Shown: in pieces, positions 1-1,214 of the stretch
Numbering within the stretch: position 1 is the stretch's first letter
Layout of the letters: each line of letters begins with the position of its first letter
Assembly: GCF_003334355.1 (NCBI RefSeq)
Contig: NZ_QOWP01000093.1
Source: Escherichia coli
GTDB taxonomy: Bacteria; Pseudomonadota; Gammaproteobacteria; Enterobacterales; Enterobacteriaceae
Length of the DNA stretch: 1,224 nt
Strand: one strand, 5' to 3'
The notes under the pieces: model-generated
Told to the model about the DNA's origin: nothing
Database searches by the model: none
What the model saw: only the letters and a program-made list of their open reading frames with translations
Program-made: the position numbers and the translations under genes

Positions 1-1214
1 GAACTGTCTTGGTCTGCCGGGTTATAACGGTCCCAGTTGAACTTCACCCGCACGCGACCATGTTCGTCGCAGAAGATTTCCTCGCCTGCCGGTCCTGTCA
101 CGACAGCGCTCTGCGGGCCGTCGACCAGCGGTTTCAGCAACGGCTGTGGTCGCCATGTTCTGTCTGCCGGGATCACCGCAAAATGGTTCTCCAGCGCCGT
201 CCCCGCTCCCTGCCGTCCTGGCACCGCCTGTGGCTGTTCGCCGTGCAGTTCACTTGCCACCACCTGCCATTCCCGGTTCAGGTTCGCCTGCGGATGCCCC
301 GTCAGCACAATTCGCCGTCCCGGCCATATCTCCAGCGAGCGGCTCATTCCCCGCGCGGTTTCTGCGTTGTTTCGCCAGCCGTCCATCTGCCAGCGGGCAA
401 AGTTCTGCCCGTGGGCGCTCTTGAAACGTCCGGGGTAGTCATACACTTCATACTGCGTGCGCTGGTAGTCCTGGTGCTGGCCTTCCTGTTCAAAACGTCC
501 GGCCCAGCCGGGGCGTTTAAAGGTGTAGTCTTTGGTCACCACGGAAGAAGGGCGGATTTGTGCGCTGTAGCGGAACTGGCTGATGCAGAGGGTGCTCACC
601 TCGGTACGGGTGTTCGGGTTCCATGGGATTTCAAAAGATTCGGGCAGATGGCGGACTGTGTCGCACAGCACCAGGCTCTGGTCGGTACTTTTGTAAGCAT
701 GCTCCTCATAAAAGAAGATGCCTTCCTCCGCCGCCATCCGGCACAGGAAATCGTAATCAGTCTCACCGTACTGGACACAAAACTCACGGGAAGGATGCGG
801 CTCGCTGAACAGCGGACTCCATTCGGTCACCCCGTTTTCCTGCAACATCGTGCCGAGGATGCTTTTGATGTCCTCGTTCTGGAAGATACGGAAGGTCTGG
901 CGCAGACCGGCACGCCACAGCGGCGGGTGCACCTTCATGCTGTACAGCATCTGGTTTTTGTCGTTCTCCCCCAGTTCAAACCAGGTCACCACGCCTTTCA
1001 CCCGGCGCTGTACTTCATCGCCCTGCCATATCGTCAGGTAGGCCATTTTGTCCAGCACCTGCGCAAATTCAAGGGAGAGAAACTGCTGGCTGACCAGGGA
1101 GAGATCGAGGGAAAAGAGCGAAGAGAGTGACTGGTTCAGATGAAAGGAAACCACCGCAAAAGCATCCGGCGGCAGGCCGTCCACTTCCAGTGTGAAACGT
1201 AATCCGGTTGACAT
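1..1214 (-). CDS. vgrG: Type VI secretion system spike protein VgrG, N-terminal part (gp27-like hub domain plus start of gp5-like OB-fold). 5' end complete, 3' end truncated by the window edge; 404 complete codons visible.
   Basis: Hand translation of the reverse complement from the ATG at 1214-1212 gives an uninterrupted frame to position 3 (no stop in 404 codons). N-terminus: [145 protein letters not shown]... Visible C-terminus: ...[39 protein letters not shown]. This matches the VgrG / Rhs-element Vgr family (Phage_GPD-like N-terminal domain followed by a Phage_base_V-like OB-fold) from memory; no database search was run. The six-frame track does not list this ORF, presumably because it has no in-window stop. 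Confidence 0.93.

Follow-up and report, generated by a model that had tools for sequence, protein, structure and literature searches.

The 5' part of vgrG, a known and very common type VI secretion spike gene, in a 1,224-nucleotide stretch of Escherichia coli DNA

The stretch of Escherichia coli DNA analysed here, which is 1,224 nucleotides long and to which we refer as the window, very probably encodes residues 1-404 of the T6SS (type VI secretion system) spike protein VgrG (TssI), from the paralogue group that comprises vgrG1/vgrGO1 (z0707 in strain EDL933), vgrG2 of the RhsE locus and vgrG3. The vgrG/tssI 5' part occupies positions 1..1214 on the minus strand and takes in codons 1-404 as well as two bases of the next codon, 405. 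That the minus-strand frame is a real gene is established by its NCBIfam scores, its Pfam match to Phage_GPD and a bias of substitutions towards codon position 3. This is a known gene that occurs very widely and has been characterised by experiment: vgrG is among the commonest accessory genes of E. coli, is routinely annotated and has been studied within vgrGO1-eagR-Rhs islands.

The translated product of 404 aa matches two T6SS-specific NCBIfam models, TIGR03361 (VI_Rhs_Vgr; T6SS tip protein TssI/VgrG) with 404.6 bits at a cut-off of 186.35 and TIGR01646 (vgr_GE) with 290.5 bits at a cut-off of 121.8. Both scores reach about twice the cut-off despite the protein ending at aa 404. A gp27-like hub domain, Pfam Phage_GPD (PF05954), spans aa 29-327 (234..1130, minus strand) with an i-E of 6.1e-75 and covers model positions 3-303 of 305. 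Among solved structures the VgrG 7q5p is the best PDB sequence match (E 4.5e-50, aa 13-403), and VgrG1 of P. aeruginosa (4mtk, 4uhv) matches over aa 13-403 as well, with E of about 6e-49. The original prediction had read the product as the N-terminus of a VgrG, which is borne out by the two NCBIfam models, by Pfam and by the homology to solved structures. It had also anticipated matches to Phage_GPD, Phage_base_V and the VgrG family. The first and the last of these were found, whereas Pfam gave no Phage_base_V match in the 404-aa window translation, because this domain begins at about aa 384 and the window ends at aa 404.

Eight homologous E. coli loci were inspected (L001 to L008), seven of which align across the whole window, the eighth being a stub in BL21. 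The full-length homologue of strain OW1E2 (L001; 633 aa), which is only two bases off the window (99.8% identity), contains Phage_GPD, Phage_base_V at aa 384-450 and Gp5_trimer_C at aa 467-560. By comparison with this homologue, positions 3..65 (minus strand) of the window probably encode the first ~21 residues of the gp5-like OB-fold (Phage_base_V; aa 384-404), which is cut by the window end.

The reverse complement of positions 3..1214 translates into 404 codons without a stop. In each of the homologous loci, the CDS is annotated as starting at the ATG that opens the frame here (1212..1214, minus strand). A Shine-Dalgarno motif, GGAGG (1220..1224, minus strand), lies 5 nt upstream of the ATG and is identical in six of six aligned sequences, namely the window and five homologous loci. 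As the frame exits the window at base 1, the gene extends past position 1, and the window shows 404 of the roughly 633-702 codons of a vgrG. Retranslation revealed neither a stop nor a frameshift that would break the frame, and it agrees with the coordinates, the length of 404 aa and the continuation past position 1 that had been proposed for this gene. Little else was detected in the window: Rfam searches at gathering thresholds gave no RNA match in the window, direct repeats are absent from it, and its one weak 16-nt inverted pair, with 81% complementarity, looks like a chance occurrence.

A megablast search located matches to the window in 3,594 of 5,426 complete E. coli genomes, at 7,991 places in total, nearly all of them chromosomal; a genome usually has 2-3 copies, with a median of 2 and at most 4. 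The best matches differ from the window by 2-3 mismatches in 1,224 nt (99.8% identity) and are annotated as 'type VI secretion system tip protein VgrG'. When the 404-aa translation was looked up as an exact product, no identical one was on record.

An intact-looking 5' part of this kind could also belong to a defective vgrG, that is, to a pseudogene or deletion remnant that makes no spike, and such genes do occur among the relatives of the window. In BL21 (L008:5011-9004) a 339-nt vgrG 5' stub is joined to a 5'-truncated RhsE core. The vgrG of strain 504239 (L004:12011-16233) encodes 503 aa, a deletion into Rhs having removed the chaperone gene and the Rhs N-terminus, and the vgrG of strain MLI114 (L007:12011-14118) carries a frameshift and internal stops. 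We also count in favour of a defective gene the ~8% of matching records in complete E. coli genomes that cover less than 80% of the query. However, all 404 of the 404 visible codons are open in the window and only 2-4 bases separate it from intact genes. In addition, five of the seven inspected loci that align over the full window hold an intact full-length vgrG. Overall, we consider it unlikely that the window stems from a defective gene and regard it as the 5' part of a vgrG whose product probably forms a spike.

The length of the open frame is no proof of vgrG, since the exact antisense frame is also open over 373 codons. This plus-strand ORF (9..1130, 373 aa, TTG start) could be taken for an overlapping gene, as every other complete ORF listed for the window is shorter. 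However, a stop in the exact antisense frame of vgrG requires a sense TTA, CTA or TCA codon, and the ORF is open because vgrG has none of these between codons 30 and 404. In diverged homologues the antisense frame is interrupted, at aa 3 in JP538 (L005), at aa 43 in the O157:H7 locus (L006) and at aa 3, 66 and 194 in MLI114 (L007), and no gene is annotated there in any inspected record. The substitutions also speak for the minus strand: 42 of the 53 between the O157:H7 locus and the window and 73 of the 99 between MLI114 and the window fall at sense codon position 3 of the vgrG frame, which is position 1 of the antisense codons. Judged from these alignments, this bias marks the frame as protein-coding and under purifying selection. 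We therefore rejected the antisense ORF, which failed the test for conservation across diverged homologues, as an artefact that has next to no chance of being a real gene. Equally, the idea that the minus-strand gene encodes a phage-tail or eCIS spike (gpD/Pvc8-type) instead of a T6SS spike, for which one could cite that Phage_GPD also covers phage baseplate hubs and that the BL21 stub is named 'contractile injection system protein, VgrG/Pvc8 family' by NCBI, was discarded as almost certainly wrong, given that the product scores about double the cut-offs of TIGR03361 and TIGR01646, both of them T6SS-specific models, that every one of the best solved relatives is a T6SS VgrG and that the inspected loci show Rhs cargo and housekeeping flanks and no phage or eCIS genes.

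The T6SS vgrG of the window carries one private change. A non-synonymous substitution at position 895 (minus strand), N107T, turns codon 107 into ACC (Thr), whereas AAC (Asn) is found in all seven loci aligned across the window. A 71-mer around N107T has no exact match in the 5,426 complete E. coli genomes, where the best match in megablast has one mismatch, and a 61-mer around it has no exact match in JGI metagenome contigs or GTDB representative genomes. Either a rare variant or an error of sequencing could account for N107T.

The closest copies, with 2-4 mismatches, all sit between cusS and nfrB. Genes there usually come in the order vgrG (633 aa), a DcrB-related gene, a gene for an Rhs protein of ~1,500-1,600 aa, one or two small ORFs and an ISAs1 transposase. 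The DcrB-related gene downstream of vgrG matches Pfam DcrB (PF08786) with 1.9e-27 in a homologous cusS-nfrB locus, a family formerly named DUF1795. It lies between vgrG and Rhs in four of the five cusS-nfrB loci and is deleted in strain 504239 (L004). The Rhs protein of ~1,500-1,600 aa has YD repeats and Rhs_assc_core above the cut-offs, while its match to PAAR is weak and below the cut-off (43 bits vs 124). Its toxin end varies by strain: it is annotated as a zincin-like metallopeptidase in one strain and as a restriction-endonuclease-fold toxin in another, and has no name in others. Orphan toxin/immunity fragments lie further downstream in three loci and include a SUKH-3 gene and Rhs fragments (L002:14421-19282, L003:14421-19759, L006:14421-21447). 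The varied ends and the orphan fragments are the usual displaced-C-terminus array of Rhs loci, and the small ORFs that follow the Rhs toxin are putative immunity genes.

The other chromosomal setting is the RhsE locus between yncH and pptA, whose vgrG copies are 92-98.4% identical to the window over its whole length. Here, a VgrG of 702 aa is directly followed by a canonical RHS core protein (NF041261, 2,769 bits), ydcD and ISAs1, and there is no DcrB gene. Across both settings, all eight inspected loci, the BL21 stub among them, have an Rhs gene or what remains of one 3' of vgrG. It is these homologous loci, rather than the contig of the window itself, that support the earlier proposal that this vgrG marks a T6SS cargo locus.

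Two further observations concern individual strains. In OW1E2 an IS5-like element, ISKpn26, is inserted between cusS and vgrG, upstream of the latter (L001:13285-14265); none is present at this site in the other inspected cusS-nfrB loci, and the insertion might affect expression of the OW1E2 island. In strain KMi012 (hit H70) only 63 nt of the vgrG 5' end are left, in unannotated DNA.

The gene order of the homologous loci is that of the published vgrG1/vgrGO1-eagR-rhs system. In EHEC EDL933, a DUF1795/EagR gene (z0706) and then rhsF (z0705) come after vgrG1 (z0707), vgrG2 (z2262) adjoins rhsE and vgrG3 lies within the T6SS island (PMC7216683). Identity among the three EDL933 VgrGs is 90% or higher, and all of them are T6SS-2-like (PMC7216683). 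According to the summary that PMC6730261 gives of the work of Ma et al. 2017, delivery of Rhs-CT toxins needs vgrGO1 and eagR, and the same summary credits that work with the demonstration of interbacterial antagonism for two such Rhs-CT toxins.

Comparison of full vgrGs from the two loci shows where their similarity ends: they are 90-100% identical over the first ~1,500 nt and then drop to background similarity for the C-terminal 130-200 codons as well as for all downstream sequence. The window (nt 1-1,214) lies wholly within the shared ~1.5 kb and thus cannot identify its cargo island or toxin; in general, the 5' 1.5 kb conserved among E. coli vgrGs gives no information on the cargo that lies behind. 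On sequence grounds the window would mark a vgrG-headed Rhs island, either of the cusS-nfrB type or of the RhsE type, with both of which it is compatible; the count of 2-4 mismatches vs 19 weakly favours the cusS-nfrB type. The 19 differences between the window and the RhsE locus of JP538 (L005:14001-15224) are clustered at gene nt 796-900 and 1110-1206. The O157:H7 locus (L006:12001-13224), a positional orthologue between cusS and nfrB, has 53 differences from the window and hence more than JP538. Such a mosaic pattern suggests that recombination or gene conversion may have taken place among vgrG copies.

The original prediction had placed the potential for novelty downstream of the gene and not in the window, and our comparison leads to the same view. 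Downstream modules differ among near-identical copies, which bears on whether undescribed cargo could stand behind this one. It is rather improbable that the copy marked by N107T heads an undescribed cargo module, such as a new Rhs C-terminal toxin/immunity pair or a new VgrG C-terminal adaptor; the most that its unseen cargo could add is one more toxin of the known Rhs-CT kind.

Both ends of the window directly adjoin sites that distinguish the cusS-nfrB from the RhsE-locus paralogues (L001, L002 and L006 compared with L005 and L007). The triplet immediately upstream of GGAGG reads ACT or CAC depending on the paralogue type, and at the other end the base next to position 1, outside the window, is likewise either G or A. 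Multiple vgrG copies are reported to fragment assemblies (PMC10711316). Ends at paralogue-differing sites fit a repeat-collapsed contig, and this suggests that the 1,224-base contig is a product of short-read assembly that perhaps cannot be extended. Since multi-copy vgrG tends to break short-read assemblies, similar fragments are likely to recur.

The way in which a VgrG spike works, from hub, needle and PAAR tip to chaperone, firing and immunity, is well established, and the encoded protein would fit into this scheme as follows. Three gp27-like hubs (aa ~29-327, within the window) would assemble into a ring; seated on the last Hcp hexamer, this ring would convert the six-fold symmetry of Hcp to a three-fold one. 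The needle would be made up of the OB-fold together with the gp5-like beta-helix (aa ~384-560, for the most part beyond the window), and the PAAR domain of the Rhs toxin would cap its tip. The DcrB/DUF1795 (EagR) chaperone encoded just downstream would keep the N-terminal region of the toxin soluble until loading. Contraction of the TssBC sheath would then fire spike and toxin into a neighbouring cell, and the small immunity protein encoded after the toxin would protect sister cells. The C-terminal ~130-200 residues of VgrG, which are divergent and lie past the window end, are the most likely seat of cargo specificity. For this copy we infer completeness, expression and use in its own genome by a T6SS, which is reported to be T6SS-2-like.

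Among known systems, vgrG1/vgrGO1 of the cusS-nfrB 'vgrG island' is closest, with 2-4 mismatches in 1,224 nt in several strains. Start codon, ribosome site and visible domain content are the same as in the window; the difference is N107T, which the window alone carries. The vgrG2 gene of the RhsE locus, also called 'vgrE' (z2262 in EDL933), encodes a protein that is near-identical to the group of the window over aa 1 to ~500. In JP538 (L005) it has 702 aa with an unrelated C-terminal stretch of ~200 aa, and differs from the window at 19 positions compared to 2-4 for the cusS-nfrB copies. The solved VgrG spikes are distant orthologues from other T6SS subtypes: 7q5p, 4mtk, 4uhv, the EAEC protein 6sjl and c3393 of E. 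coli CFT073 (2p5z) match over aa ~13-403, a stretch that comprises the gp27-like hub and the beginning of the OB fold, with E from 4.5e-50 to 2.5e-14. The EAEC (6sjl) and CFT073 (c3393, 2p5z) VgrGs, which are of the E. coli T6SS-1 type, match the window product weakly, with E of about 1e-14. This weak match fits the published T6SS-2-like class of the vgrGs considered here (PMC7216683). With the gp27-gp5 cell-puncturing device of phage T4 the protein shares the fold family, as seen from Phage_GPD, Phage_base_V and Gp5_trimer_C in the full-length homologue. In contrast to T4, gp27 and gp5 are fused in one chain in VgrG and the lysozyme domain is missing, and the gene is part of a chromosomal toxin-delivery island and not of a phage.
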